Positions 5,743-59,122 of a stretch of 64,000 nt of DNA are shown one piece after another. The DNA lies in the NCBI GenBank assembly GCA_035527535.1, contig DATLAK010000084.1, positions 9,413 to 73,412 of the forward strand. Direction: 5' to 3'. Source of the DNA: Armatimonadota bacterium. GTDB lineage: Bacteria; Armatimonadota; Hebobacteria; GCA-020354555; CP070648. The notes below the pieces were generated by a model. It searched no databases and was not told the origin of the DNA. It was given only the letters and a program-made list of their open reading frames with translations. Position numbers and translations under genes: made by a program. Numbering within the stretch: the first letter of the stretch is position 1; every line of letters begins with the position of its first letter.

Positions 5743-5787
5743 TGGTTGCTCCTGCGTGTCTGGAACGATAAAGACACGAACGGTAGG

Positions 5788-5844
5788 GCAGCCGTCTCGG
5801 CTGCCAACCCGTCGAGGATGCCAGGCGGGACGCCTGGCCTACCG
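5788..5844. repeat. REP-C double hairpin GGCAGCCGTCTCGGCTGCC ... CCAGGCGGGACGCCTGGCCTACCG
   Basis: Intergenic, between the two URO-D genes. Shares CCTGGCCTACCG with the copy at 15347-15370. Confidence 0.6.
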
Positions 5845-5912: not shown

Positions 5913-7067
5913 TCAACTGCCGCCGTACTTCGGTGCCAGCCGGTGGAACTCATCCAGCAGCGCCATGAAGTTATCGTACTTCGTGCCGTAGGCGATGGAC
6001 TGGCTGGGGCCGAGGATGAACCCCGGCGTGCGGGCGCCGCGCTCCAGTGCCTGCCGCACGTCGCGGCGGATGTCATCGGGCGTGCCCGCGATCAAGTCCT
6101 CCACCGGCACCCCGCCCCACAGGCACAGGCGGTCGCCGAAGTCGCGCTTCAGCCCGCCGATCTCCATATCCGGGATGTCCTGCAGCGACTGGTAGCACTG
6201 CACGCCCGCCTCGATGAACATCGGGATCAGCGGGCGGTTATCGCCGCAGCTATGCAGCACCACCTGGTAGCCCAGCGCGCGCGCGCGTCGCACCCGCTCG
6301 CGCATCGCCTCGAAGCAGAACTCGCGGAACATCCGCGGCGAGATGAACGGCCCCTTGGTCGTTCCGAAGTCTTGCTGGAAGAACACCCCGTCCTGGCCGG
6401 GGCGAAGCATGTACTCGTCGGCCGCGTTCTGGCGCGCGACCGCCTGCCCGGTCGCCGCGCGCACCACCTCGGGATGGAGCGCGTATTCCAGCAGCCCGCG
6501 CTCCCATCCGCCCAAGAGCACCATCGCGGCAAACCCGCCCGAGTCGCCGAGGATGTAGCGGTCGCCCCCCAGGTGCTCGATCACATGGTCCACCGCCTCG
6601 AAGATGGTGGGGTCGGGCGGCTGCACCTCGACCGGCCCCGTGAACTGCTCGACGGTGTAGGCAGTCGCTTCGACCGTCGGATCCTCGACGCAGGCGATGT
6701 TGTTCGTCTCCAGCGACGCCTTCCACACGCGCCCCTTGCGGTCGCGCCACGTGTTGTCGGCGATCTGCTTCGGCGGGTCCTCGGGCGCCCACCCGCGCGG
6801 CGGCACGATCGGCGCCTCCTTGAAGGCGATGACGTCGGCCACCTCGAGCTTGCGGTAGAACTCGACGGTATCACGCTGGTAGCTATCCACCACCTCGTCG
6901 CGCCGGCCCTGCCACAGCGCGAGCTGGGCCTTGATCTTGTTGCGCACATAGGTCTCGCGCCCGATCACGCGCTCGATGGTGTCGCAGTCCACGACGTAGA
7001 AGCCCAATGGCACGCGATCCACCGGCTCCCGGTTGATCGCGGCGCGCACTCGTTCCTTGCCGTTCAT
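5913..7067 (-). CDS. URO-D/MtaA family protein (paralog)
   Basis: Same fold: REPVDRVPLGFY, LHSCGDNRPLIPMFIEAGVQCYQSLQ, LWGGVP. Start at MNGKERV. Confidence 0.7.
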   Translation of the reverse strand: MNGKERVRAAINREPVDRVPLGFYVVDCDTIERVIGRETYVRNKIKAQLALWQGRRDEVVDSYQRDTVEFYRKLEVADVIAFKEAPIVPPRGWAPEDPPKQIADNTWRDRKGRVWKASLETNNIACVEDPTVEATAYTVEQFTGPVEVQPPDPTIFEAVDHVIEHLGGDRYILGDSGGFAAMVLLGGWERGLLEYALHPEVVRAATGQAVARQNAADEYMLRPGQDGVFFQQDFGTTKGPFISPRMFREFCFEAMRERVRRARALGYQVVLHSCGDNRPLIPMFIEAGVQCYQSLQDIPDMEIGGLKRDFGDRLCLWGGVPVEDLIAGTPDDIRRDVRQALERGARTPGFILGPSQSIAYGTKYDNFMALLDEFHRLAPKYGGS

Positions 7068-7102
7068 GGGGCCATCTCCATTCGCGCCCGCGCGTCCGGT
7101 TC

Positions 7103-9853
7103 TCACTCGCGCAGCGGCTCGCCCTGGCTGATGATGGTGACGTAAGCGCGTGCGCTCGCGGTCTGGTCGGCCCGTGCGTCGCAGGTGAAAGCGACCTGGT
7201 TGTCGCCGGCGGCAAGCTCCGGCGCTTCTCCCTCGGGCTGCACCTCGGCAATCAGCTTGCCCTGGGGATCATAGAGCCTGCAATCCGACATGGAGCGAAA
7301 CTCGAGGTAGCAGCCGGTTTCGATCTCGCACGGGAAGACGACGGTCTTGCCGCCGATGGTCACCGCCGGGTTGCGCAACTTGATCTCGACCAGCGGCAGC
7401 GCCCGGATGGGGCTCAGGCGGCAGTCCACCTGTCCCCCCGGCGGGAGGTTGTTGTACCATAGGCCGAGCGATGCCACCTGGCGGTAGTCCACGAACTCGC
7501 GGTAAATCGAGTGCAGATCGCCGTAGGGCCAGTGATAGTCCTCGAAGCGCGCGCCCTCCGGCTCGATCATCTCGAAGTAGCGCCAGCCGGTGAAGTCCAC
7601 AATGACGTAATGGTCGCCGATGCCGGCGACAACGTGCTCCGGGCTGCGGAGCTGAAAGTTGAGCACTTCCCCCTGCCCGTCGCCGTGAACCCAAACGCCG
7701 AGCGCCTGGCGCTCACCGAGGTCGAGCGGGGTCGGGAACACCTTGGTCATCCCCGCCCACGTTGCGGTGGGCTGCTGCAGTTCGCTGGTGGCGGTGTAGC
7801 GGCCGCTGACGGGGCCCGCCTTCACCTCGGCCGCGTCGGGGCGCAGATCCGCACGCACACCGGCCTGGGCGACGCGATCGGCGAAGTCGCGGTCGTCCGC
7901 GAAATCCGCCAGCGTCAAGTTGTCGGCCGCGTCGTACGGGCCCGCCGACAGCAGCGCCTCGATCCGCAACTGCGCGGGCTGGCCACCAAACTTGCTGCAC
8001 GTGGTCCAGACGTTGCTCCAGCCGTCGCTGCCCTGCACTTTGTGCTTCGCATATTGCACCGGCCGGAAGAACCACTTGCCGTCTGCGGCTTGCTCCAGCG
8101 TGAACTCGCCGCCAGGCGCCCTCAGCTTCGCCTTGACCGACTCCGGGAAGTAGTTGGCGTGCCGTAGATCCTCGTACCGCTTGAAGACGGCCGCCAGCCG
8201 CGCGAAGGCCGGCACTTGCGCTATGCTGTCGGGGTCCACCCCCATCAGCGAGAGGCCGGTATCGGTGGCCAGGGCCTTGCCGCACAGGTACTCGATGTCG
8301 TCCGTGAAGGTGGGCTCCCCCTCGGCGCCCGACCAGGTATTCACCGCCCACCATCCCAGGTGGCCAGGCATCAACATCCGCAGATTGCCCTGGTTGACAG
8401 CAACGTGGAGGTCTATGAATCGCTTGTGACTGCGCCGGGGGTGATCCCAGGCACCCAAGCGCGAGCGCACATACCACAGGTGATGGTGGAATGTGCTCAT
8501 CTCCATGAGCGCGGGGCGCTGCAGGTGCTTCCATATCTCGAACACGAACCTAGAGCTGTAGTGCCAGTAGTTCTCGGCCCCGCCGAGGATGTCTCCGCCG
8601 TCCAGCGCATCGAGGTAGATCATGTCGAAGCCGCACTCGTTGAAGGCCTGCGCGGTCCTTTCCGCCACCTCGCCCAACAGCGTGGAATCGGCATCGGGCA
8701 CGAACAGGCCGAAGCACTCCTTCAGGTGATGCACCTTCGCCCCCGGGGCATGGGGAGCGGGCCGCGTGCCGCAGGCGCCGCGCTCGCAGCCGGTGAAGCC
8801 GTAGGGCGGATCCTGGGCTACACCGGCATAGGTGATCAGCTCGTCGTCTATCTGCAGGGTGGCGCTGTTGCGCACGTAGAAGCCGGTGACCGCGGACATG
8901 CCTTCGGTCTCCTCCATCACCGCCACCGCGGTGTCGTCGGCGCCCAGCGCCGCGGCCAAGGTCAGGCACGCATCCTTGGCGAGCCGCGGATCCGGCGACG
9001 GCGCCACCCACGGGCAGCGCTTGTCAATGAAGAAAGCGTAGGTATGCAGGCCGGCCTTGATGCCGGCGGCGTGCAGCCGGTCAATCACCGCCTTGAGGCT
9101 GGCGAAGCCGCGCGGGTAGGTTTCCGGATTGGGCAGGCAGTCCCCAAACCGGAAGGAAGCGCCGCCGTGGAAGTCTATCTGGTTGAAGCCAAGCGCCTGC
9201 ACTAGCCTGATCCAGTCATCCGCGGTCTGCTCCGACAGGTTGGCGAGGTTGAACAGGTATGACCCGCGGTTGATCTCGGCGTCGAGCGCCCACGGCCCGC
9301 CGATGGAGGAATGCGGCAGCTCCGGCGCCGCGCTCACGACTTCTTGCATCACCTGCCGCAGCTCGCCCTGGGGGCAAGCGATGAGCGCGACCTTGGCGCC
9401 GGCGAAGCCGAAGCGGGGATAGCACGCCGCCCACAGGTGCTTGCTCGGTCCCGGCAGCCCGGACACATTGGTCTGCAGGTTGAGGGCGAGCGCGCAGCAG
9501 GCGAACTCCTCCTCCAGCGTCCCCTCAAGCGTGAGACCGATGTTGGCGAACACGAGCTCCTCCACCCCTTCGCCCGCGACCGACAGGACTTCCAGGGTAA
9601 AGTAGCGCCCCTGCTCGACTGCCGCGAGCACGACCTCGACTCCCGCATCGCCGAACTGCGCCGTGATGCGCCCGTCCCGAAACGAGACCGCTGACGCGCC
9701 GTGATACCGGCCCGCCTGCTTGACTTGAGCGAACGGGAGCCGTGGCTCCCGGACGCAGTAGTCCATGCCCGTGCGCCGGTCAATCAGGTGTGAGTTCTCG
9801 CCGTTGGGGCCGATCTCGTAGCTGGCGCATTGGTTCTCGATTCCCATGGTCAT
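7103..9853 (-). CDS. large (916 aa) hypothetical protein, TIM-barrel glycoside-hydrolase-like
   Basis: Long GC3-rich ORF. Segment GFNQIDFHGG...AGIKAGLHTY is typical of (beta/alpha)8 glycosidases. No exact family assigned. Confidence 0.55.
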   Translation of the reverse strand: MTMGIENQCASYEIGPNGENSHLIDRRTGMDYCVREPRLPFAQVKQAGRYHGASAVSFRDGRITAQFGDAGVEVVLAAVEQGRYFTLEVLSVAGEGVEELVFANIGLTLEGTLEEEFACCALALNLQTNVSGLPGPSKHLWAACYPRFGFAGAKVALIACPQGELRQVMQEVVSAAPELPHSSIGGPWALDAEINRGSYLFNLANLSEQTADDWIRLVQALGFNQIDFHGGASFRFGDCLPNPETYPRGFASLKAVIDRLHAAGIKAGLHTYAFFIDKRCPWVAPSPDPRLAKDACLTLAAALGADDTAVAVMEETEGMSAVTGFYVRNSATLQIDDELITYAGVAQDPPYGFTGCERGACGTRPAPHAPGAKVHHLKECFGLFVPDADSTLLGEVAERTAQAFNECGFDMIYLDALDGGDILGGAENYWHYSSRFVFEIWKHLQRPALMEMSTFHHHLWYVRSRLGAWDHPRRSHKRFIDLHVAVNQGNLRMLMPGHLGWWAVNTWSGAEGEPTFTDDIEYLCGKALATDTGLSLMGVDPDSIAQVPAFARLAAVFKRYEDLRHANYFPESVKAKLRAPGGEFTLEQAADGKWFFRPVQYAKHKVQGSDGWSNVWTTCSKFGGQPAQLRIEALLSAGPYDAADNLTLADFADDRDFADRVAQAGVRADLRPDAAEVKAGPVSGRYTATSELQQPTATWAGMTKVFPTPLDLGERQALGVWVHGDGQGEVLNFQLRSPEHVVAGIGDHYVIVDFTGWRYFEMIEPEGARFEDYHWPYGDLHSIYREFVDYRQVASLGLWYNNLPPGGQVDCRLSPIRALPLVEIKLRNPAVTIGGKTVVFPCEIETGCYLEFRSMSDCRLYDPQGKLIAEVQPEGEAPELAAGDNQVAFTCDARADQTASARAYVTIISQGEPLRE

Positions 9854-15370: not shown

Positions 15371-15563
15371 ATTACGGCGCGGTGGTGCCCGGCTCACTCC
15401 GCCCCGGCCGAATCCCGCCTTTGTGCCGCGCCTGCGCGACCAAAGCTGTTCCCAATCTGTTACACTCCGTGGGGAATCCATCGCGCATGGGGAGGCGTGG
15501 AGACAAGGGCGTGATGAATCACGCCCCTACACCGGAATTCACGGAGCTTATGGAGGCGAAATC

Positions 15564-23251: not shown

Positions 23252-23279
23252 GTAGGGGCGCATGGCCATGCGCCCCTAC
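23252..23279. repeat. REP-A palindrome GTAGGGGCGCATGGCCATGCGCCCCTAC (plus CCCCGACCAGTCGGGG at 23322-23337)
   Basis: Perfect palindrome. Same ends as the other REP-A copies. Confidence 0.6.
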
Positions 23280-28595: not shown

Positions 28596-30542
28596 ATGAG
28601 CATTATCATCGAAGTGGATCAGACCCAGGCGGGGAAGCAAACCATCGCCGAGTGGCTGCAAACTCGCGACCAGGGGAATGTGGCACCCCGACCGATCGGG
28701 GTGTCCCCTCTGGCACAGCAGGCGGTCGCAGCGCGCGCGGACGGCGCGTTGCTCGACCTGACCGCCCCGCTGCCGGCAAGCGACCGCCTGGAGATCCTGA
28801 CCTTCGAGGATGAAGCGGGGCGCGAGGTCTATCACCACTCGACCAGCCACATCATGGCGCAGGCGGTCACCCAGCTCTTCCCCGACGCGCACCTGGCTAT
28901 CGGCCCCGCCATCGCCGAGGGCTTCTACTACGACTTCGACCTGTCACACAAGTTCGTGCCCGAGGATCTGGAGCGCATTGAGGACGAAATGCGGCGCATC
29001 ATCGCCGCCGACCTGCCCTTCGCGCGCGAGGAGATGGCCCGCGATGCCGCCGTCGGCTTCTTCAAGGAGCGCGGCGAGGACTACAAGGTCGAGCTGCTGC
29101 AGGAGATCGCCGATGACCGCGTCAGCATCTACCGCGACGGCGATTTCGTGGACCTGTGCCGCGGGCCGCATCTGCCCTCCACCGGGCGCGTCGGCGCGGT
29201 CAAGCTGCTCAGCATCGCCGGGGCCTACTGGCGCGGCGACGAGCGCCGCCCTCAGCTCCAGCGCATCTACGGCGTCAGCTTCCCCACCCAGGAGCAGCTC
29301 GACGAGTTCCTGCGCCTGCGCGAGCAGGCGGCCCTGCGCGACCACCGCCGCCTGGGCAAAGAGCTCGACTTGTTCTCGATCCCCGAGGAGCTGGGCGGTG
29401 GGCTGGTGCTGTGGCATCCCAAGGGCGCGTTGGTGCGCTACCTGATCGAAGAGTTCTGGCGCCGCGAGCACTACCAGCGCGGCTACCAATTGGTGTTCTC
29501 GCCGCATATCGCGCGCGCCCACCTGTGGGAAACCAGCGGCCACCTCAGCTTCTACAAGGAGGGCATGTACGGCCCGCTGATGATTGACGAGGACGAGTAC
29601 CGCCTCAAGCCCATGAACTGCCCCTTCCACTTGCTCATCTATAAGAGCCGGATGCGCAGCTATCGCGATCTGCCGATCCGCTATGCCGAGCTGGGCACCG
29701 TCTATCGCTACGAGCGCTCCGGGGTGCTGCATGGCCTGCTGCGCGTGCGCGGGTTCACCCAGGACGACGCGCACATCATCTGCACCCCGGAGCAGATCGG
29801 CGACGAAGTGAAGGGCGTGCTCGACCTGACGCTGTTCATGATGAACGCCTTCGGCTACCAGGACTTCGAGGTGGACCTGAGCGTGCGGGATGAGGCCGAC
29901 CACGCCAAGTACATGGGGTCGGACGAGGACTGGGCGATCGCGGAGAAGTCGCTGACCGCGGCGCTGGACGACAAAGGGGTTACCTATAAGCGCGCGCCGG
30001 GCGAGGCGGTGTTCTACGGGCCGAAGATTGACATCAAGCTGCGCGACTCCATGGGGCGGGTGTGGCAGGGGCCGACTATCCAATTCGACTTCAACCTGAC
30101 CAGTCGCTTCAACATGGAGTACATCGGCGCCGACGGGCAGGCGCACACCCCGCTGATGGTGCACCGCGCGCTGCTGGGCTCCATCGAGCGCTTCTTCGGC
30201 GGGCTGGTGGAACACACGGGGGGCGCTTTCCCCGCCTGGCTGGCGCCGGTGCAGGCGGTGGTGCTGCCGATTGCCGAGCGGCATCAGGAATGTGCGCGCG
30301 GGGTGCACGAGCGACTGACGGCCGCCGGCTTCCGCGCCGACCTCGATGACCGCAACGAGAGCATGCGCTACAAGATCCGCGAGGCGCAGGTGCAGAAGGT
30401 GCCCTACATGCTCGTCGTCGGCGACCGCGAGGCGGAATCGGGGCAGGTCTCCGTCCGCTCCCGCAGCGCGGGCGACCTCGGCGCGCAGGGGCTAGACGAG
30501 TTCGTCGCCCACCTGACCGCCGAGGTGGAAAGCAAGGGTTGA
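28596..30542 (+). CDS. thrS: threonyl-tRNA synthetase
   Basis: N-terminal TGS domain, class II core, HRAL..., C-terminal anticodon-binding domain. RBS GGAGGG. Confidence 0.9.
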   Translation: MSIIIEVDQTQAGKQTIAEWLQTRDQGNVAPRPIGVSPLAQQAVAARADGALLDLTAPLPASDRLEILTFEDEAGREVYHHSTSHIMAQAVTQLFPDAHLAIGPAIAEGFYYDFDLSHKFVPEDLERIEDEMRRIIAADLPFAREEMARDAAVGFFKERGEDYKVELLQEIADDRVSIYRDGDFVDLCRGPHLPSTGRVGAVKLLSIAGAYWRGDERRPQLQRIYGVSFPTQEQLDEFLRLREQAALRDHRRLGKELDLFSIPEELGGGLVLWHPKGALVRYLIEEFWRREHYQRGYQLVFSPHIARAHLWETSGHLSFYKEGMYGPLMIDEDEYRLKPMNCPFHLLIYKSRMRSYRDLPIRYAELGTVYRYERSGVLHGLLRVRGFTQDDAHIICTPEQIGDEVKGVLDLTLFMMNAFGYQDFEVDLSVRDEADHAKYMGSDEDWAIAEKSLTAALDDKGVTYKRAPGEAVFYGPKIDIKLRDSMGRVWQGPTIQFDFNLTSRFNMEYIGADGQAHTPLMVHRALLGSIERFFGGLVEHTGGAFPAWLAPVQAVVLPIAERHQECARGVHERLTAAGFRADLDDRNESMRYKIREAQVQKVPYMLVVGDREAESGQVSVRSRSAGDLGAQGLDEFVAHLTAEVESKG

Positions 30543-30610
30543 ACCGCAGAGAACGCGGAGGCCGCGGAGAGGGATATTGAACCGCCGACAAACGCAGACG
30601 GACGCCGATG

Positions 30611-30668
30611 GTAGGGGCGCGATTCATCGCGCCCTCCGGAGCCGGGCACAGCGTACTGTGCCCCTACG
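30611..30668. repeat. REP-A element GTAGGGGCGCGATTCATCGCGCCC...GTGCCCCTAC
   Basis: Palindromic GGGCGCGATTCATCGCGCCC core flanked by GTAGG...CCTAC ends. Confidence 0.6.
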
Positions 30669-30676
30669 TTTCCGCT

Positions 30677-30703
30677 CCGCGCTCTCTGCGTCTCTGCGGT
30701 GAG
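30677..30703 (+). promoter_or_regulatory. 27-nt motif CCGCGCTCTCTGCGTCTCTGCGGTGAG just upstream of the HAD gene start
   Basis: 26/27 identical to 31447-31473 upstream of the next gene. Confidence 0.4.
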
Positions 30704-30705
30704 GC

Positions 30706-31419
30706 ATGAACACCATGACTTGGCCGCGCGCCATACTATTGGATTTCTACGGCACCGTCGTCGAAGAGGACGACGTGGCGATCGCCGCCATTTGCGAGCA
30801 GGTGACGAGCGCGTGCGGCAATGACGCGGCCTCGCGCCGGATCGGTTCGTACTGGGGCCGCGCCTTCGCAGACATGTGCCTGCACAGCCACGGGGAGAGC
30901 TTCGGAAGTCAGCGGGAATTGGCGGTTGCGTCTTTGCGGGAGACCCTGCTGCATTTCGGGCCGCGTCTCGATGCGGTCACACTGAGTCAATCACAGTGGC
31001 GCTACTGGACGCAGCCGGAGCTGTTCCCCGAGAGCAGAGAAGTGCTCGCTAGTTGCGGCGTGCCGATCTGCCTGGTGAGCAACATTGACAACGATGATCT
31101 GGCGGCTGCCCTCGCGCACAATGGGTTGTCATTCGACCTGATCGTGACCAGCGAGGACTGCAGAGCCTACAAGCCGCGGCCCGAACCGTTCAGACGTGCT
31201 CTTTCCCTGCTGGGGTTGCCGCCGGAGGCGGTATTGCATGTGGGTGATTCTATTGGGGCTGATGTCCGGGGAGCGAAGGCCGAGGGGATTCCTGTGCTCT
31301 GGATAAACCGACAAGGGAAGTCTGTGCCGACCGGAGATGATGCCCCCGACTATGCGGCGAGCGACCTGAGCGGGCTTCTCCGCGTGCTGCCCGCAGCTCG
31401 TTCCCACCGTCAGGGCTGA
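30706..31419 (+). CDS. HAD-IA family hydrolase
   Basis: LLDFYGTVV (DxYGT), VSNID, HVGDSIGADVRGAKAEG. Confidence 0.75.
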   Translation: MNTMTWPRAILLDFYGTVVEEDDVAIAAICEQVTSACGNDAASRRIGSYWGRAFADMCLHSHGESFGSQRELAVASLRETLLHFGPRLDAVTLSQSQWRYWTQPELFPESREVLASCGVPICLVSNIDNDDLAAALAHNGLSFDLIVTSEDCRAYKPRPEPFRRALSLLGLPPEAVLHVGDSIGADVRGAKAEGIPVLWINRQGKSVPTGDDAPDYAASDLSGLLRVLPAARSHRQG

Positions 31420-31446
31420 TCCGCGTCAATCCGCAGCCGCGAATCT

Positions 31447-31473
31447 CCGCGCCCTCTGCGTCTCTGCGGTGAG
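31447..31473 (+). promoter_or_regulatory. second copy of the 27-nt motif CCGCGCCCTCTGCGTCTCTGCGGTGAG
   Basis: 9 bp upstream of the DUF1638 gene start. Confidence 0.4.
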
Positions 31474-31481
31474 CATTGCAC

Positions 31482-32297
31482 ATGCGAATCAAGGTCATCG
31501 CCTGCGAAGTGCTGTTCCGCGAGGTCTGCCTGTGCGCGGCGCGGTCGCCGCACGTCATTGACCTCGAGTTCCTGCGTCGCGGGCTGCACGACAACCCGGA
31601 GACGCTGCGCGCGGAGGTGCAGCAAGCGATAGACGCGACGGACGCCCGTGGGGGCGCGATTCATCGCGCCCATTCACCCCGATGGATCGGGGTGCCACAT
31701 GTCAAGTACGACGCCATCGCCCTCGGCTACGGCCTATGCAGCAACGGCACGCTGGGCCTGGTCGCGCGTGACACGCCGCTGGTGATCCCGCGCGCCCACG
31801 ACTGCATCACCTTCTTCCTCGGCTCCAAGGACGCCTATCATCGCCACTTCCACGACGAGCCGGGGACCTATTACTACACCTCCGGCTGGGTGGAGCGCGC
31901 CGGCGGCGGCGTCCCGCGCACCCGCGAGGAGGGCGAAGGGCTGCAGATACCCTACGAGGAGTTGGTCGCCAAATACGGCGAGGACAACGCGCAATACCTG
32001 TACGAGATCAGCCAGTCGTGGATCAAGAACTACGCGCGGGCGGCGTTCATCGGCCTGGGGCTGGGGCCGCAGGAAGCGCTGCGAGCCGAGGCGCTGCGGG
32101 TGGCGCAGGAGCGGTCGTGGGATTTCACCGACCTGCCCGGCGATCTGCGCCTGCTGTGCAAGCTGCTCGACGGCGAATGGGACGAGGCGGAGTTCCTGGT
32201 CGTGCCCCCAGGCCATCGGGTGACCCGCGGCGACGAGGCAAGCATTTTGGCCACGGAAGACGCGGATGAGAGCAAACCGCCGATGTACGCCGATTGA
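31482..32297 (+). CDS. DUF1638-family protein (corrinoid-methyltransferase-associated family) carrying an in-frame palindromic insertion
   Basis: MRIKVIACEVLFRE N-terminus. 31648-31694 encodes RGGAIHRAHSPRWIGVP from two REP palindromes. Confidence 0.5.
   Translation: MRIKVIACEVLFREVCLCAARSPHVIDLEFLRRGLHDNPETLRAEVQQAIDATDARGGAIHRAHSPRWIGVPHVKYDAIALGYGLCSNGTLGLVARDTPLVIPRAHDCITFFLGSKDAYHRHFHDEPGTYYYTSGWVERAGGGVPRTREEGEGLQIPYEELVAKYGEDNAQYLYEISQSWIKNYARAAFIGLGLGPQEALRAEALRVAQERSWDFTDLPGDLRLLCKLLDGEWDEAEFLVVPPGHRVTRGDEASILATEDADESKPPMYAD
31648..31694. repeat. REP-A core GTGGGGGCGCGATTCATCGCGCCC plus CACCCCGATGGATCGGGGTG, inside the coding sequence
   Basis: Same GGGCGCGATTCATCGCGCCC as at 30613-30634. 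Confidence 0.6.
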
Positions 32298-32311: not shown

Positions 32312-32333
32312 GTAGGGGCGCACGGCGTGCGCC
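32312..32333. repeat. REP-A GTAGGGGCGCACGGCGTGCGCCC
   Basis: Exact reverse complement of the copy at 35788-35810. Confidence 0.6.
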
Positions 32334-32402
32334 CAACGTGGGAGACACCCCCTGGCCTGAATCTGTGCCGACTCTTTCGAACCTCGACGGACCTCGTAGC
32401 CT

Positions 32403-34448: not shown

Positions 34449-34624
34449 CGGCGTTCGTCGGTGTCAGTCGGCGGTTCCAATGGTAGTATGCATTTCGGCG
34501 ATGGCTTGTTTCACCCGGCGGAGAGAAACTATGGCCGAAGATGGCGCGCAGATGCGGTAGGGGATTCCCCTCGGCGGGCTCGGGGCAGGCTCTCGGTCGT
34601 GCGGTCCCCCTCGGAATGACATTC

Positions 34625-35575
34625 TCAGATCTGCGATCCCAGTGCGCCCGGCCGCGCGCGGGCGGCTTCCTGCAGGGCCGCGGAGATCCACTGCGCCAGG
34701 CCCTGGGAGCGACGCGTGCGGCGCGTATCGTAGAAGGCGCGCGCGAGCAGGCGCAGCGCCGGCGCGCCAATCCTGCGCTCGATGCGGTCGAAGGGCACCG
34801 CTTCGCCCTCGTGCTCGATCACGTCGGCCAGGATGCACAGCGCCTCCTCGGCGGCGTCGCGCGGGCTCAGATAGCCGATGCGCAGGCTCCGGCCCAGCGC
34901 CTGCAGCAGCGGCTTGATCTCCTCGCGTTCCCACAGTTCCGCCGGTCCCACCAGCGCGTGCAAGGTCGCGTGGGCGACGGCGCCGGCCAGGCGCTCCGGC
35001 CGCTCCAGATAGGCGGCGCCGAGCACGACCGAGAGCCCGAACCGGTTGACCGTGAAGACTCGCAACAGGTGATAGTGGAAGGTGGCGCGGCCGGGGCGGT
35101 ACTCGACGCCGAGGGCGTCCTGGTGGCGGACGAGGATGCGCGCGAGATCGAAGGTGCGCAGGGCGTCGGCCAGGCGGCCGTCGAGGTCGAGGCGGATGCC
35201 GGTCCAGCGCTCGAGGAAGTCGTTGAGCTGCATGCGCCCGAAGCGCTGGAGGGTGTTGCGCGCCTGGGGGCGCGCGCGCAGGTCGGGCATGGCGGCGAGC
35301 GCGTCGGCGGCGGAGTCGGGGCAGGTGCGCGCAACCGCCTGCAGCCACGGCCGCCACAGCGGCTCGATGTGCAGGGGTTCGAGCTGACCGGCGTCGGCGA
35401 CCTCGAAGCGCCGCGCGAAGTCGGCGAAGGGGTCGTCGTCCGGCACGGGCCACAGCGCTGGTCGGGTGAGGGCGGGCAGGCGCAGTTGCGCCCGGCCGAG
35501 CAGGTAGAAACAAAAGTTCAGCCCCTGCCCGACGACGTGGCGCAGGCGGAAATCCAATCGCTCGTCGGACATCAT
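34625..35575 (-). CDS. hypothetical protein
   Basis: GC3-rich 316-aa ORF. Preferred over the overlapping Arg-rich 443-aa frame. Confidence 0.45.
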   Translation of the reverse strand: MMSDERLDFRLRHVVGQGLNFCFYLLGRAQLRLPALTRPALWPVPDDDPFADFARRFEVADAGQLEPLHIEPLWRPWLQAVARTCPDSAADALAAMPDLRARPQARNTLQRFGRMQLNDFLERWTGIRLDLDGRLADALRTFDLARILVRHQDALGVEYRPGRATFHYHLLRVFTVNRFGLSVVLGAAYLERPERLAGAVAHATLHALVGPAELWEREEIKPLLQALGRSLRIGYLSPRDAAEEALCILADVIEHEGEAVPFDRIERRIGAPALRLLARAFYDTRRTRRSQGLAQWISAALQEAARARPGALGSQI

Positions 35576-35763
35576 GTGGTCTCGCCCGGTGCAACGGGGG
35601 AGAGTCAGGTAGGTACTTAGACCCCGGCGCGCGATTTCCTCTGGCGCGCTGCCGCCGAAGGCACGGACCCGGAGCCCGTGTCGCAGCGCCGCCGGCCTGC
35701 GCGCGGGGATACGCGGGTGTGACCGTTCTTGGTTGGGGTGGCCGGTTGTGTGCCCGAATGTGG

Positions 35764-35810
35764 CACCCCGGCCGGTCGGGGTGGAGCGGGCGCACGCCGT
35801 GCGCCCCTAC
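35764..35810. repeat. REP composite CACCCCGGCCGGTCGGGGTG + GGGCGCACGCCGTGCGCCCCTAC
   Basis: Palindromes related to REP-A/REP-B. Located upstream of tRNA-Gln. Confidence 0.6.
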
Positions 35811-35905: not shown

Positions 35906-35980
35906 TGGCGGGTGGCGCAACGGTAGCGCGAAGGACTTTGGATCCTTAGGTTGCAGGTTCGAATCCTGCCCCGCCAGCCA
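35906..35980 (+). tRNA. tRNA-Gln (anticodon TTG)
   Basis: Hand-folded cloverleaf. U1:A72 acceptor pair typical of bacterial tRNA-Gln. Anticodon loop CTTTGGA, T-loop TTCGAAT, CCA encoded. Confidence 0.8.
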
Positions 35981-44896: not shown

Positions 44897-44923
44897 CTCG
44901 CCCCGACCGGTCGGGGCGCCCGT
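44897..44923. repeat. REP-B CTCGCCCCGACCGGTCGGGGCGCCCGT
   Basis: 27/27 identical to 52548-52574. Confidence 0.65.
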
Positions 44924-53005: not shown

Positions 53006-53905
53006 GTGCACCATGGGAGACCGCTGGCGATGAACTTGAGAATCGGCGATGGTCGCGACTGGGCCTTTGTCAACGGCGCGTGGAGCGAAGACGCGGCAGG
53101 GCGGATTGACTGCCCGACCACCCCTGACAACCACGCCCTGGCGTTCCATCTGCCGCAGGCGTTCGCGGACGCGACCGTGGGGTTCGAGTTCCTGGCGAGC
53201 TATCGCGAGACCGGCGCCGGCGATGTCGGGGTCATCCTGCGCGCGCGGGGCGCCAATGACTACTATTGGGTCAGCTTCCCGTGGTGCGCGCAGCAGGCGC
53301 GCGCCAAACACTTCTGGGCGGCGATCTCGAGGGTTGACTCCTCGGGCTACGTCCGCAACCTCAAGCTGGCGATCATACCGGGGGTGCCGAGCGAGACCGA
53401 ACGCTGGTACCAGGCGCGGGTGGAGTGCGCGGGCGCGACGATTCGCGTGTGGGTCGAGGGCCGCCCGGGACCGGTGGTGAGCGACATCACGGCGGGCGCG
53501 GGGCGCATCGGCTTCGCCGGGTATGGGGGCTTCGCGCTGCGCAACCTGCGCGTCAGCGGCGATGCGGCGCCGGCACCCGCATGGGACGAGACCGCCCCGA
53601 CCGGTCGGGGCAACTGGTTTCATCCCGCGCCGGGCGCCAACGGGGGGCAGAGCATGCCCTCGCTGTGCCGCACGCCCGGGGGCGATCTCCTGCTGGCGAT
53701 CCCGACGGTGGAGACCGATCAGACTTTCGTGGTGCGGTCGCGCGACCACGGACGCTCTTGGGGGCAACCGCAGGAGCTGCCAGCGGCGTTGAATGGCGGC
53801 ATCGTGCACGCGACCAAGAGCGGTCGGCTGGTGCTGCAGGTGGTCCACGCTGGGCCCCGCCGTATCCTAATGGCGGAATCGCAAGATGACGGGCGCACCT
53901 ACTGA
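53006..53905 (+). pseudogene. BNR/Asp-box repeat protein, apparently 3'-truncated (ends ...SQDDGRTY*)
   Basis: Asp-boxes SRDHGRSW and SQDDGRTY, with the stop directly after the latter. The 3' end overlaps the first copy of the tandem duplication. Confidence 0.4.
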
Positions 53906-55470
53906 AACATCGTCTGCTTCACCTGCGGCGGCAGCTGCGAGGAGAAGTCCAGCAGGTGCCGCCGCAGTATCGGCGCTTCCGCTGGGTCAACCGCATAGAA
54001 GGTGACGGTGTCGCCGGCGCAGATCAGGTTAACCGGTATGCGCCACTTGCCCACCATCACCCACTCGCGGGGCAGGCCGCCGAAGGGCGTGAACCATCCC
54101 CGGTAGGCGATGGCGACCTTGACTCCCTTGGCGCGCGCCAACCGGCGGATGGTTGCGGTGTCATAGGTCCGGCTCAGGCGCGCGGCTGCTACCTCCGGGG
54201 TGCCCAGCCCCCACAAGTCCAGCAGCTTGATGTCCGCCAGGTAATCCACGGCTCCGATATCGTTGGCCGCGACCGCCTCCCCTTGATAGTACTGCCGGTA
54301 GAACCGACCCATCTGGTACTGCTGTTGATAAATGTTCGCGACGGTGATATGCGTGACGGTGATCGTGTACAGCCCGTGTTGTCCGATCGGCATGAGCAGC
54401 AGCGCCCCGGTCGCCGCCAGCGCCGCCCGCAGGCGGGCGCGGTCCGACAGCCTGGTGGAACGCAGCGCCGCGAACACGGAAACGGCGAGTGCATAGATCC
54501 CCAAGGTGGCGAGGTAGGCGTCGTAGCGGAGCAACCCCGCCTTTGCCAGCAGCACCTGCATCCCCAAGACGACCAGGAATACCAGGAGCGCCAACTGCTC
54601 CCTCCGCCATATGCCGCGTCTCCTCAGCAGGCCGTAGCCGAACAGCAGCGCGCAAGGGACTGCCACTTGCCACACGCGGGATTGCGCCGCCAGCTCCAGC
54701 CCCTTCATCTCCCCCGCCAAGCCCAAGCAGGCGCTCTTGAGCAGCACCGAGTTGGGCAGCCAGCGGCCACCATGGGCGATCGCGACCACCCCGTAGGCCG
54801 CCAACGGAACCGCCGCCAGGCCTGCCAGCGCGATCGCCAGCGCCCACCTTCGCCGCAGCAGGAACAGCGGCATCACCGCCGCGATCAGGAATAGTCCCTC
54901 ATAGCGGATGGCGGTGATCAGGGGAGTCAGCGCCAACATGAGCACTGCGTTGGTGCGCGGCTGGTCCTGGCGAGTGAGCGCCTGGATGCAGAGGCAAACG
55001 AAGGCCAGGTCCACCGACGCCTGCAGCACGTGCTCCATGCCCGTGAACACCAGCCACGGCAGCGGCACGAAGATAATCAGCTCTACCAGTACCAGCAGGA
55101 TATAGACGCTTGGCAACTGGGCGCGCTTCAGCAGGAGGAACATCAGGCCGACCAGCAGTGTCGCGAAGACGATGTTGAGCGCAAGCGGCACGATCTCGCT
55201 CGGCCCTACCAGCAGATAGGGAAGGGCTACCAGCAGCGGCCACAACAGCGAGGACTGCGAGGAGCTGAAGCCATATTTCGTGACCCCCAAGACGCCATCC
55301 TGCACCAGGTGCTTGGCCAGCGCCATGTGGATATAGGCGTCATCCAGGCCGTACACCACGCGCCCGCCGGTCACGGACAGGGAGCGCTCAAGGATCACCG
55401 CCAGGTTCCACCATAGGAACGCTATGGCGACCACCAGCGGCCAGTTTTCGCGCACCCACTTCAACCGCAC
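53899..55470 (-). CDS. polytopic membrane protein (~10 TM, putative GT-C-fold glycosyltransferase-like), paralog 1
   Basis: 523 aa. YGLDDAYIHM in the first extracytoplasmic loop. Soluble C-terminal domain. Confidence 0.6.
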   Translation of the reverse strand: MRLKWVRENWPLVVAIAFLWWNLAVILERSLSVTGGRVVYGLDDAYIHMALAKHLVQDGVLGVTKYGFSSSQSSLLWPLLVALPYLLVGPSEIVPLALNIVFATLLVGLMFLLLKRAQLPSVYILLVLVELIIFVPLPWLVFTGMEHVLQASVDLAFVCLCIQALTRQDQPRTNAVLMLALTPLITAIRYEGLFLIAAVMPLFLLRRRWALAIALAGLAAVPLAAYGVVAIAHGGRWLPNSVLLKSACLGLAGEMKGLELAAQSRVWQVAVPCALLFGYGLLRRRGIWRREQLALLVFLVVLGMQVLLAKAGLLRYDAYLATLGIYALAVSVFAALRSTRLSDRARLRAALAATGALLLMPIGQHGLYTITVTHITVANIYQQQYQMGRFYRQYYQGEAVAANDIGAVDYLADIKLLDLWGLGTPEVAAARLSRTYDTATIRRLARAKGVKVAIAYRGWFTPFGGLPREWVMVGKWRIPVNLICAGDTVTFYAVDPAEAPILRRHLLDFSSQLPPQVKQTMFQ

Positions 55471-55660
55471 TTACCCCCGGCCGCGTCTCAGGCGATCCCG
55501 CGAGGGTTGGGTCCCGCCTCCATACCAAGGGTCACCATCGCTCAGCGGTTCCCGGTATGGGACTCCTTGTGCTTGTTCGCCCTCGCAAAGCCCTCCCCTT
55601 CCATCAGGTCCCTGGCTGATGGGGGACGGCGGTCTGCAACCCGGGCCGTAATCACGGGAC

Positions 55661-57232
55661 CTACTGAAAAACCAACTGCTCCACCTGCGGCGGCAGTTCC
55701 GAGGAGAAGTCCAGCAGGTGCCGGCGTAACATCGGCGCTTCCGAGGGGTCAACCGCATAAAAAGTGACGATCTCCTCGGCGCAGATGACGTTGGCCGGTA
55801 TGCGCCACTTGCCCACCATCACCCACTCGCGGGGCAGACCGCCGAAGCGCGTGAACCATGTCCAGTAGACCACGGCGACGTTGACTCCCTTGGCGCGCGC
55901 CAACCGGCGGATGGTCGCGGTGTTGTAGGTCCGATTCAGGCGCGCGGTCGTGACCTCCGTGTTCGCCAGCCCCCACAGGTCCAACAGTTTGGTGTCCGCC
56001 AGGAAGCTCACGGCGCCGATGTCATTGGCCGCGACCGCCTGCCCCTGATAGTACTGCCGGTAGAACCGACCCATCTGGTACTGCTGTTGGTAGATGTCCG
56101 CGACGGTCACGTGCGATAGGATCATGGTGGACAAGCCCCATTGGCCGGGACGCAGGGCCAGCAGCACCCCCATGGCCAGCAATGCCGCCCGGACGCGGGT
56201 TGCCTCCGAAATGCTGATGGAACGCAGCGCCGCGAACACGGAAACGGCGAGTGCATAGAGGCCCAGGGCGACGAGATAGGCGTCGTAGCGGGATAACCCC
56301 ACCTTTGCCAGCAGGGCCTGCATCGCGAAGACGAGCAGGAAAATCAGGACCGCCAACTGCTCCGTTTGCCATATGCCGCGCCTCGCCCGCAGGCCCCAAA
56401 GGTATAGGAGCACGCAGGGCACCACCAGATACCATAGGCGGGAGCGCGCCGCCAGCGTCAGCCCCCCGACCTCCCCCGGCAAGTCCAAGTACGCGCTCTT
56501 GAGCAGCACCGAATTGGGCAACCAGTAACCGCCGTGGCTGATCGCGACCACCCCGTAGGCAGCCAAGGGGGCCGCCGCCAGGCCTGCCAGTGCAATCGCC
56601 AGCGCGAAGCGGCGGCGCAGCAGGAACAGCAGGATCGCCGCCGCGATCAGGAACAGCCCCTCGTAGCGGATCCCGGTTATCAGGGGAGTCAGCGCCAGCA
56701 TGAGCACTGCGTTGGCGCGCGGCTGCTCTTGGCGGGTGAGCGCCTGGATGCAGAGATAAACGAAGGCCAGGTCCATCACCGCCTGCAGCAGGTGCTCCAT
56801 GCCTGTGAACGCCAGCCACGGCACCGGCAGGAACACGATCAGCTCCGCCAGCACCAGCAGGATGAAGGCGTTCGGCAGCCCCGCGCGCTTCAGCAGGAGG
56901 AACATCAGGGCCACCAGCAGCGTCCCGAAGACGATGTTGAACGCGAGGGGCACGATCTCGCTCGGCCCCACCAGCAGATAGGGAAGGGCCAGCAGCAGCG
57001 GCCACAACAGCGAGGACTGGGACGAACTGAAGCCGTACTTGGTGACGCCCCAGATGCCATCTTGCGCCAGGTGCCTGGCCACCGCCATGTGGATGTAGGC
57101 GTCATCCAGGCCGTAGACCAGGCTCCCGCCGGTCACAGACAGCGACTGATGGAGGATCACCCCCAGGCTCAGCCACAGCAGCGCTATGGCGACCACCAGC
57201 GGCCAGTTCTCGCGCACCCACCTCAATCGCAC
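55661..57232 (-). CDS. polytopic membrane protein, paralog 2 (tandem duplicate)
   Basis: Same length. Roughly 85-90% identical at the amino-acid level by eye across the full protein, including ~50 bp of upstream sequence. Confidence 0.6.
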   Translation of the reverse strand: MRLRWVRENWPLVVAIALLWLSLGVILHQSLSVTGGSLVYGLDDAYIHMAVARHLAQDGIWGVTKYGFSSSQSSLLWPLLLALPYLLVGPSEIVPLAFNIVFGTLLVALMFLLLKRAGLPNAFILLVLAELIVFLPVPWLAFTGMEHLLQAVMDLAFVYLCIQALTRQEQPRANAVLMLALTPLITGIRYEGLFLIAAAILLFLLRRRFALAIALAGLAAAPLAAYGVVAISHGGYWLPNSVLLKSAYLDLPGEVGGLTLAARSRLWYLVVPCVLLYLWGLRARRGIWQTEQLAVLIFLLVFAMQALLAKVGLSRYDAYLVALGLYALAVSVFAALRSISISEATRVRAALLAMGVLLALRPGQWGLSTMILSHVTVADIYQQQYQMGRFYRQYYQGQAVAANDIGAVSFLADTKLLDLWGLANTEVTTARLNRTYNTATIRRLARAKGVNVAVVYWTWFTRFGGLPREWVMVGKWRIPANVICAEEIVTFYAVDPSEAPMLRRHLLDFSSELPPQVEQLVFQ

Positions 57233-58743: not shown

Positions 58744-59122
58744 GGTTGTTCTCCCTGTTCGGCGCGTGGATTCGCAAATACATTCGTGAGGCGGGAGCTT
58801 GCCTCCTGCCCAGGCGGCGTGGGGGCCGCCCGGCGCTTGGGCAGGACGTGACCTCGGAAAGCGGGAATGCCCCGGCGGATTGAGCACCCCGATCTGTCGG
58901 GGTGATGTTGCCGCAGGGCAGCACCTTCGCGTTCCATCACCGCCGCCTGAAAGCGATTGTGCGACAGGATGGGGCGCGGGCTCAAGCCGCGATCCAGGAA
59001 CTCGGGGAAGCCGCAACCGGCGATATGCTGGGCAAGCGCGTCCGCGGCCGCGCCAGCGGGCGCACGAATACCGGCGCCTGCCGCAGCAGCTCCTCGGCTT
59101 CCTGGTCCCAGTCCATGTCGTC

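Follow-up and report, generated by a model that had tools for sequence, protein, structure and literature searches.

In a survey of repetitive extragenic palindromic (REP) sequences, Di Nocera, De Gregorio and Rocco (2013, BMC Genomics 14:522; PMC3733652) distinguished superfamilies by their tags, GTAG or CGTC. The part of that survey on which we draw describes GTAG REPs as short GC-rich hairpins with GTAG at one end that are mostly intergenic and often lie in inverted pairs, and reports that REPs flank genes for REP-associated tyrosine transposases (RAYTs). According to the same part, a minority of REPs in several species lies wholly inside open reading frames (ORFs) of known proteins, with the most GTAG cases in Opitutus terrae, and more than half of the intragenic REPs are dimers or groups encoding 20 to 30 amino acids, for which flexible linkers or loops were suggested. 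Here, we describe two REP-like palindromes that lie in frame within a gene of the DUF1638 family, in a 64-kb stretch of Armatimonadota bacterium DNA (the window, whose positions serve as coordinates). A protein encoded nearby is 100% identical to one that NCBI names as Armatimonadota. Very probably, the DUF1638 gene received a REP dimer where it encodes the loop joining helix 2 to strand 3, and the dimer is now translated as approximately 18 extra residues. The gene, the insert, and its two hairpins are the following.

31482..32297, plus strand: DUF1638 coding sequence that hosts the insert; 271 amino acids; Pfam PF07796.
31644..31703, plus strand: in-frame insert of 20 codons (55 to 74), ARGGAIHRAHSPRWIGVPHV in place of a loop of 2 to 3 residues; net gain of 18 amino acids (54 nucleotides).
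31648..31671, plus strand: REP A; GTGG tag, which is GTAG in intergenic copies, and a hairpin with a 9-bp stem and a 2-nucleotide loop.
31675..31700 (31675-31698 without the AT), minus strand: REP B; (AT)GTGG tag and the hairpin CACCCCGAT cc ATCGGGGTG.

The DUF1638 insert is one REP dimer, two inverted palindromes whose tags face outward. An earlier note on this DNA had placed two palindromes at 31648-31694 within ORF 31482-32297 and had seen in the first the core of an intergenic REP. Both palindromes are there, and the frame, which reads ARGGAIHRAHSPRWIGVPHV through the stretch, is unbroken. The sequence of 31640-31710 is ggacGCCCGTGGGGGCGCGATTCATCGCGCCCATTCACCCCGATGGATCGGGGTGCCACATGTCaagtacg, in which the insert has the layout 5'-GTGG-(GGGCGCGAT tc ATCGCGCCC)-att-(CACCCCGAT gg ATCGGGGTG)-CCAC-3'. 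Palindrome A (GGGGGCGCGATTCATCGCGCCC, 31650-31671) forms stems of 9 bp (31652-31660 and 31663-31671) that are 100% complementary around the 2-nucleotide loop, and palindrome B (CACCCCGATGGATCGGGGTG, 31675-31694) likewise has perfect 9-bp stems at 31675-31683 and 31686-31694. When folded as RNA, 31640-31710 gives two adjoining hairpins at -37.3 kcal/mol (z = -3.5 versus shuffles). The shared core, moreover, is an exact 21-mer: GGGGCGCGATTCATCGCGCCC occurs exactly twice in the window, at 31651-31671 and at 30614-30634 between thrS and a HAD gene, and a copy with two mismatches lies on the minus strand at 15507-15527. The chance expectation for such matches is 0.02, and none of 100 dinucleotide-preserving shuffles equaled the observed count. 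No T-run was found in the sequence 3' of either hairpin, and a terminator function was rejected for that reason.

ORF 31482-32297 is a genuine, intact DUF1638 gene under purifying selection, as the earlier note had assumed in calling it a coding sequence of that family. The protein matches the full profile of Pfam DUF1638 (PF07796; positions 1-161 of 161, E = 7.6e-38, 130.4 bits against a cutoff of 27). In alignment with homologs, conservation covers the N-terminal 54 residues, which rank with the best conserved in the family (MRIKVIACEV.FRE...RGLHDNP..LR..VQ..ID), and all sequence past the insert, and the residues C8, R13, E14, G34-L35-H36, Y83, L85-C86-S87, and H106-D107-C108 are invariant. 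Nei-Gojobori comparison with orthologs, the loop being left out, gave a ratio of nonsynonymous to synonymous substitution (dN/dS) of 0.24 to 0.28 that was alike for inserted and uninserted ortholog pairs. We judge the gene to be intact because both flanks of the insert are conserved and dN/dS is approximately 0.24. Assembly error is an unlikely source of the insert, since the independent metagenome contig L001 (JGI 3300031566), 99.95% identical to the window over 11.3 kb, carries the identical insert. We note that the sole difference between the two over that length is a 6-nucleotide indel, CCGCAG, which encodes PQ and lies at 32067-32072 of the same gene in a GGGCTGGGGCCGCAGGAAGCG context.

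Homologs locate the insertion. A search with the window protein returned 5843 DUF1638 homologs, and in the best 120 of these the residues that separate the GLH motif from the Y[GA]LCS motif were counted. The spacing was 28 residues in 96 of the 120 and 27 in 2 more, such that 98 lack an insert, and it was 46 residues in the window and in its near-identical twin, P0001. With 46 residues against the baseline of 28, the net gain is 18 amino acids, and its position coincides with the two palindromes. The close ortholog P0006/L003 preserves an empty site, ...ATAGATGCCGCCGAG-CCTAGT-AAGCACGACGCC... (IDAAE-PS-KHDAI), where the window reads IDATD-ARGGAIHRAHSPRWIGVPHV-KYDAI, and comparison with that site revealed no direct repeat flanking the insert. 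A scan of GTDB genomes for orthologs yielded, among the matches listed, only homologs of 42 to 55% identity; those with a parsable loop, about half of the matches listed, had 28 to 33 residues there and no inserts, and they entered no statistic. The earlier note had expected an insertion of 16 to 20 amino acids confined to this organism. Its length and place were borne out, and so was confinement as far as the A-B insert goes, which among the 120 closest homologs occurs only in the window and P0001. Confinement does not extend to the loop itself, however, as orthologs carry other palindromes in this loop.

The site of insertion is predicted to be disordered. An AlphaFold2 model of the DUF1638 protein (mean predicted local distance difference test [pLDDT] score, 82; predicted template modeling score, 0.79) gives pLDDT below 50 to a single internal segment, residues 58-71, which follows helix 39-59 and precedes strand 78-81, and thus the insert appears in the model as a low-confidence loop. 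The predicted fold alternates strands and helices, and the invariant residues all follow strands 1 to 4 (C8/E9 after strand 2-8, GLH after 25-31, YGLCS after 78-81, and HDC after 100-103). As the insert precedes strand 3 while the invariant residues follow the strand, its loop would lie at the end of strand 3 opposite the YGLCS motif. A Foldseek search of the model against the PDB gave no match at an E value of 0.001 or below and hence no solved homolog. The model suggests that the insert may be tolerated as a near-neutral "junk" peptide rather than selected.

The simplest reading is that the two-hairpin REP dimer would have entered the DUF1638 gene as a unit. Stop codons are absent from four of the dimer's six frames and from all six frames in the case of REP B. 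Because most frames lack stop codons, an insertion with a length that is a multiple of three usually leaves a gene open, and the net gain of 54 nucleotides would have done so here, with the element then translated in the predicted disordered loop. Mobilization might have been the work of a RAYT-type tyrosine transposase. In the syntenic relative L088, a gene at 6767-7249 directly upstream of thrS encodes a RAYT-like Y1_Tnp protein of 160 amino acids (PF01797) and is flanked by inverted GTAGGGCAGGAGCTTGCCTCCTGCCC GTAG REPs; thus, REP/RAYT systems exist in the clade. A tblastn search with the L088 protein found no match in the other loci. We note that a 461-amino-acid gene call in L092 (1024-2409) joins Phos_pyr_kin with a weak Y1_Tnp match.

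REP A and REP B belong to families with further copies in the window and beyond, of which the following bear on the insert.

30611..30667, both strands: intergenic REP dimer 3' of thrS; GTAG-tagged REP A at 30611-30634 (plus) and a GTAG-tagged partner hairpin at 30644-30667 (minus).
35760..35810, both strands: intergenic B-A' dimer, GTGG-[B]-gagc-[A']-CTAC.
32312..32334, plus strand: REP A' (GTAG), GTAGGGGCGCACGGCGTGCGCCC, 15 nucleotides past the DUF1638 stop codon; identical to 35788-35810 (minus).
15507..15530, minus strand: REP A variant (GTAG) with two compensatory stem changes; extragenic.
23252..23279, intergenic: perfect palindromic GTAG REP, GTAGGGGCGCATGGCCATGCGCCCCTAC.

In the window, a census counted 14 hairpins with GTAG or GTGG in front of the stem; most stand in inverted pairs whose tags point outward, and 11 of the 14 are extragenic. 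The tag is GTAG in 10 of the 14, including those at 30611, 30667 (minus), 32312, 35810 (minus), 15530 (minus), and 23252, and it is GTGG in both arms of the DUF1638 insert and in a copy within thrS. Inverted pairs are found at 5783/5842, 15313/15368, 30611/30667, 31648/31698, and 35760/35810. The last of these, which lies between a minus-strand gene (window 34619-35569) and a plus-strand gene (from 36089), both annotated on L001, has the B-spacer-A' layout of the DUF1638 insert as read on the minus strand. A tRNA-Gln gene (anticodon TTG) lies about 100 nucleotides from it, at 35906-35980. In L003, a REP A variant, GGGGCGGGATTCATCCCGCCC at 2572-2592, occupies the same place 3' of thrS as 30614-30634 does in the window; its loop is unchanged, and its stem changes are compensatory (GCGCG/CGCGC to GCGGG/CCCGC).

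REP B has the consensus (AT)GTGG-CACCCCGA-nnnn-TCGGGGTG, with three copies in the window. An exact-pattern scan with 22 specified bases found it in 40 metagenome contigs, and the (AT)GTGG tag was present in every copy found. Many of these copies have a second hairpin 2 to 4 nucleotides upstream, GTAG-tagged in nine, and one shows the same junction as the DUF1638 insert (...GCCGCCC-ATT-CACCCCGA). Only one further copy among the 40 contigs is possibly intragenic. That copy, at about 243-268 of L128, lies within a long open frame and reads NVAPRPIGV, the frame being that used in thrS; the surrounding sequence is of low complexity, rich in Ala, Pro, and Ser, and upstream of a membrane segment, and the copy may precede the true start. 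Within the window, the REPs at 15507-15530, 58885-58904, and 35788-35806 were rejected as intragenic, as all lie upstream of real gene starts, judged by conserved N termini (MAEHDYQYVIIGGGPAG of a flavin adenine dinucleotide [FAD] oxidoreductase, whose gene has 15507-15530 upstream of its start; MRKVKIGF) and by the gene calls on L001. The pair at 5783-5842 was set aside too; as it sits at the 5' end of a stop-to-stop ORF, it is assumed to lie 5' of the real start.

The essential gene thrS also carries a translated REP.

28677..28709, plus strand: single REP B of 33 nucleotides, AATGTGGCACCCCGACCGATCGGGGTGTCCCCT, in frame in thrS (28596-30542); encodes NVAPRPIGVSP (11 amino acids) in the TGS domain.

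Six syntenic orthologs have a clean gap of 11 amino acids at this site (...RDEG|LAKQ...). A search with the N terminus of threonyl-tRNA synthetase (ThrRS) returned fragments only, of which 117 of 120 had the uninserted length and none had an insert at the site. As no homolog fragment carries an insert, the thrS site is not recurrent. Alignments made with phmmer to solved ThrRS structures begin only past the insert.

The DUF1638 loop, by contrast with the thrS site, is recurrent: other palindromes occupy it in orthologs, as listed here with the residues that each adds.

P0002/L006, P0003/L002, and P0007/L004: palindrome of about 75 nucleotides, TGTCATTCTGAGGGAGCG...CGCTCAGGATGACA (CHSEGA.RPKNL...CAQDDI); 24 to 28 amino acids.
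P0015/L005: single GTAG REP, GTAGGGCAGGTTTCAAACCTGCCC; 15 amino acids.
P0004-P0013 clade: GCTCTGCCCA-gcagcgcga-TGGGCAGCGC in L088 (10-bp stem); 12 amino acids.
P0024 and P0041: weakly palindromic inserts; 23 amino acids.

Relatives of the 75-nucleotide palindrome are intergenic in L002 and L004, the 12-amino-acid palindrome is clear in L088 and visibly decayed in L087, and the palindromes in the loop of L089 and L090 are weak. The alleles of the loop conflict with the gene tree, as seen in pairs that, with the loop excluded, are highly identical and yet differ in allele.

Window (A-B dimer) and P0002 (long palindrome): 93% identity.
P0007 (long palindrome) and P0009 (12-amino-acid palindrome): 97% identity.
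P0006 (empty) and P0010 (12-amino-acid palindrome): 90% identity.

Moreover, the DUF1638 genes of L004 (160-1020) and L091 (6001-6813) carry different inserts and are approximately 100% identical in DNA 3' of the loop and 83 to 90% identical 5' of it, a mosaic that reflects recombination with its breakpoint at the palindrome or else a chimera of metagenome assembly. L002 and L004 both keep GTGCCACATGTG, the last three stem nucleotides and the tag of REP B, directly after the long palindrome. Given this remnant, REP B probably preceded the long palindrome in the loop. A palindrome already resident might attract recombination or more REPs, and this would account for the different palindromes in the loops of orthologs.

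How the loop came by so many alleles bears on how the insertion of a REP dimer is to be understood. One possibility, which we take seriously but hold to be somewhat doubtful, is that the alleles spread mainly by homologous recombination, such that one or two original insertions were shuffled and partly overwritten. The conflict between loop alleles and gene tree, the L004/L091 mosaic, and the REP B remnant in L002 and L004 are all consistent with that history. The mosaic could, however, be a chimera assembled at a repeat, and independent inserts must be supposed in at least three clades, as P0015/L005 and P0024/P0041 belong to clades other than the window's and hold unrelated inserts. These sequences fit repeated insertion into an existing REP as well as transfer of alleles by recombination. 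Spread by recombination, moreover, concerns the history of the alleles and not the identity of the element, and it is compatible with an inserted REP dimer. A different and very unlikely explanation is that an RNA or DNA hairpin at the loop, where the N-terminal beta-alpha-beta unit meets the remainder of the gene, is selected and not just tolerated, for example as a translational pause, an mRNA stability element, or a gyrase site, such that lineages keep some palindrome there. Indeed, unrelated palindromes fill the same loop (the A-B dimer, the 75-nucleotide palindrome of L002, L004, and L006, the GTAG REP of L005, and those of P0004-P0013 and L089/L090), and the insert, as RNA, folds with unusual stability. 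On the other hand, most homologs, including the close ortholog P0006/L003, do without an insert, the decay of the 12-amino-acid palindrome in L087 suggests a stem without constraint, and neither a T-run nor another signal follows the hairpins. Recurrence might also arise without selection, since REPs attract further insertions (PMC3184786; PMC3733652, in the part consulted). We regard as refuted the notion that the palindromes are not mobile copies at all, being instead of local origin or part of a pseudogene or miscalled fusion whose real start lies past the hairpins. Other REPs of this GC-rich window do fall in long stop-free ORFs only through calls extended upstream (15507-15530 and 58885-58904), but here the 54 residues that precede the insert are highly conserved, dN/dS is 0.24, the 21-mer is identical to that of an intergenic REP, and the REP B family extends to 40 contigs.

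Several observations nonetheless weigh against insertion of a REP dimer followed by neutral translation. The tag of the intragenic REP A is GTGG and not GTAG. No RAYT gene was found in the 64-kb window by tblastn with the L088 protein. All of the sequences are metagenome assemblies, and neutrality is argued from the position of the insert in a predicted model only. Finally, at least four clearly different palindromic inserts and two weak ones share one loop, which could mean that the hairpin is selected. We speculate that, in this DUF1638 ortholog group, the helix 2-strand 3 loop may serve as a permanent "landing pad" with rapid gain, exchange, and loss of REP-type palindromes, which are possibly kept for a useful mRNA or DNA hairpin, but we consider this unlikely. 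Were it true, mobile palindromes would be a source of a hypervariable protein segment, and the loop would be a natural system for following REP turnover inside a coding sequence.

Other repeats in the window were noted along the way. A third in-frame case was considered at 53594-53611 (GCCCCGACCGGTCGGGGC, encoding APTGRG in ORF 53006-53905) and rejected because the linker of homologs (AAAPR) is of nearly equal length. The palindrome itself is perfect, lies in an interdomain linker, and is kin to intergenic copies at 44899 and 52550. The gene in which it lies, DUF1080/BNR-sialidase-like, stops at 299 amino acids, where homologs reach 523, and its stop coincides with the start of a 300-nucleotide repeat (53897-54196 and 55659-55958, 86% identical). 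Two tandem paralogous membrane-protein genes of 523 amino acids on the minus strand, 53899-55470 and 55661-57232, also begin at that repeat, and the sialidase-like gene looks truncated by the duplication or insertion. Finally, a 38-nucleotide repeat (30675-30712 and 31445-31482, 87% identical) contains CTCTGCGTCTCTGCGGTGAG, and each copy ends at a start codon, the first at that of the HAD-hydrolase gene and the second at that of the DUF1638 gene. An inverted relative lies near 30544-30572. The repeat may be another repeat family or a common 5' leader.

The DUF1638 insert is a well-bounded example of a translated REP and, with a second in the essential gene thrS, extends the phenomenon to Armatimonadota. 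For annotation, lineage-specific "loops" that derive from such inserts can mislead alignments, structure models, and domain calls. If the alternation of palindromes at one loop is upheld in closed genomes, it would offer a route to study insertion or recombination seeded by REPs and the absorption of junk peptides by proteins.

How the element relates to described systems depends on its tags and architecture. Like the GTAG REPs, it consists of short GC-rich tagged hairpins in an inverted pair and belongs to a multicopy, mostly extragenic family; thus, it has the structure of that family, with the qualifications that its intragenic tags are GTGG and that a RAYT was seen only in a relative. Unlike the intragenic GTAG REPs, it is a dimer of two different REP sequences. 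Canonical REPINs of the REPIN/RAYT system (Bertels and Rainey 2011, PLoS Genet; PMC3116915, PMC3337134) are likewise two inverted REPs with a short spacer, the presumed mobile unit, and that system pairs them with a single-copy Y1 transposase flanked by REPs, such as was found in L088 in the present lineage. They are, however, extragenic and made of two copies of the same REP, whereas here the hairpins differ, the spacer is 3 nucleotides, the unit is translated, and the window holds no RAYT.

The earlier note had likened the insert to the palindromic elements of Rickettsia and Neisseria, and the likeness holds insofar as a palindrome was inserted in frame; the closest precedent, however, is the intragenic GTAG REPs, as described in the cited part of PMC3733652. 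Rickettsia palindromic elements (RPEs; Ogata et al. 2000, via PMC3733652, in part, and PMC3184786) likewise lie in frame in functional genes, including housekeeping genes, but their host is an obligate intracellular alphaproteobacterium, and they have no sequence relationship to the present elements. The short RPEs of R. conorii are CGTC-tagged, and longer RPE-1 insertions are mentioned (PMC3733652, same part). The element is not an RPE, given its GTAG/GTGG tags, 24-nucleotide units, and Armatimonadota host, and the resemblance is functional only. To our knowledge, no dedicated transposase is known for CGTC REPs. The miniature transposable elements with inverted repeats known as MITEs, among them the Correia/NEMIS elements of Neisseria and BRE, RUP, and BOX, for which in-frame fusions have been reviewed (Delihas 2011, PMC3184786), are also small non-autonomous repeats, at times joined in frame to coding sequences or located within them. 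MITEs are 70 to 400 bp with terminal inverted repeats and target-site duplications, in contrast to the tagged 24-nucleotide hairpins found here, which have no terminal inverted repeats or visible duplications. The element, at 51 to 54 nucleotides with two separate hairpins and no flanking direct repeat relative to L003, is not a MITE. Ultimately, the mechanism and the kind of event are already known from in-frame GTAG and CGTC REPs and from Rickettsia RPEs. New here are the host lineage and genes, a heterodimer whose hairpins come from two REP families, and an orthologous loop at which unrelated palindromes alternate; Armatimonadota, DUF1638 and thrS hosts, and such alternation are not described in the part of the PMC3733652 survey used for comparison.

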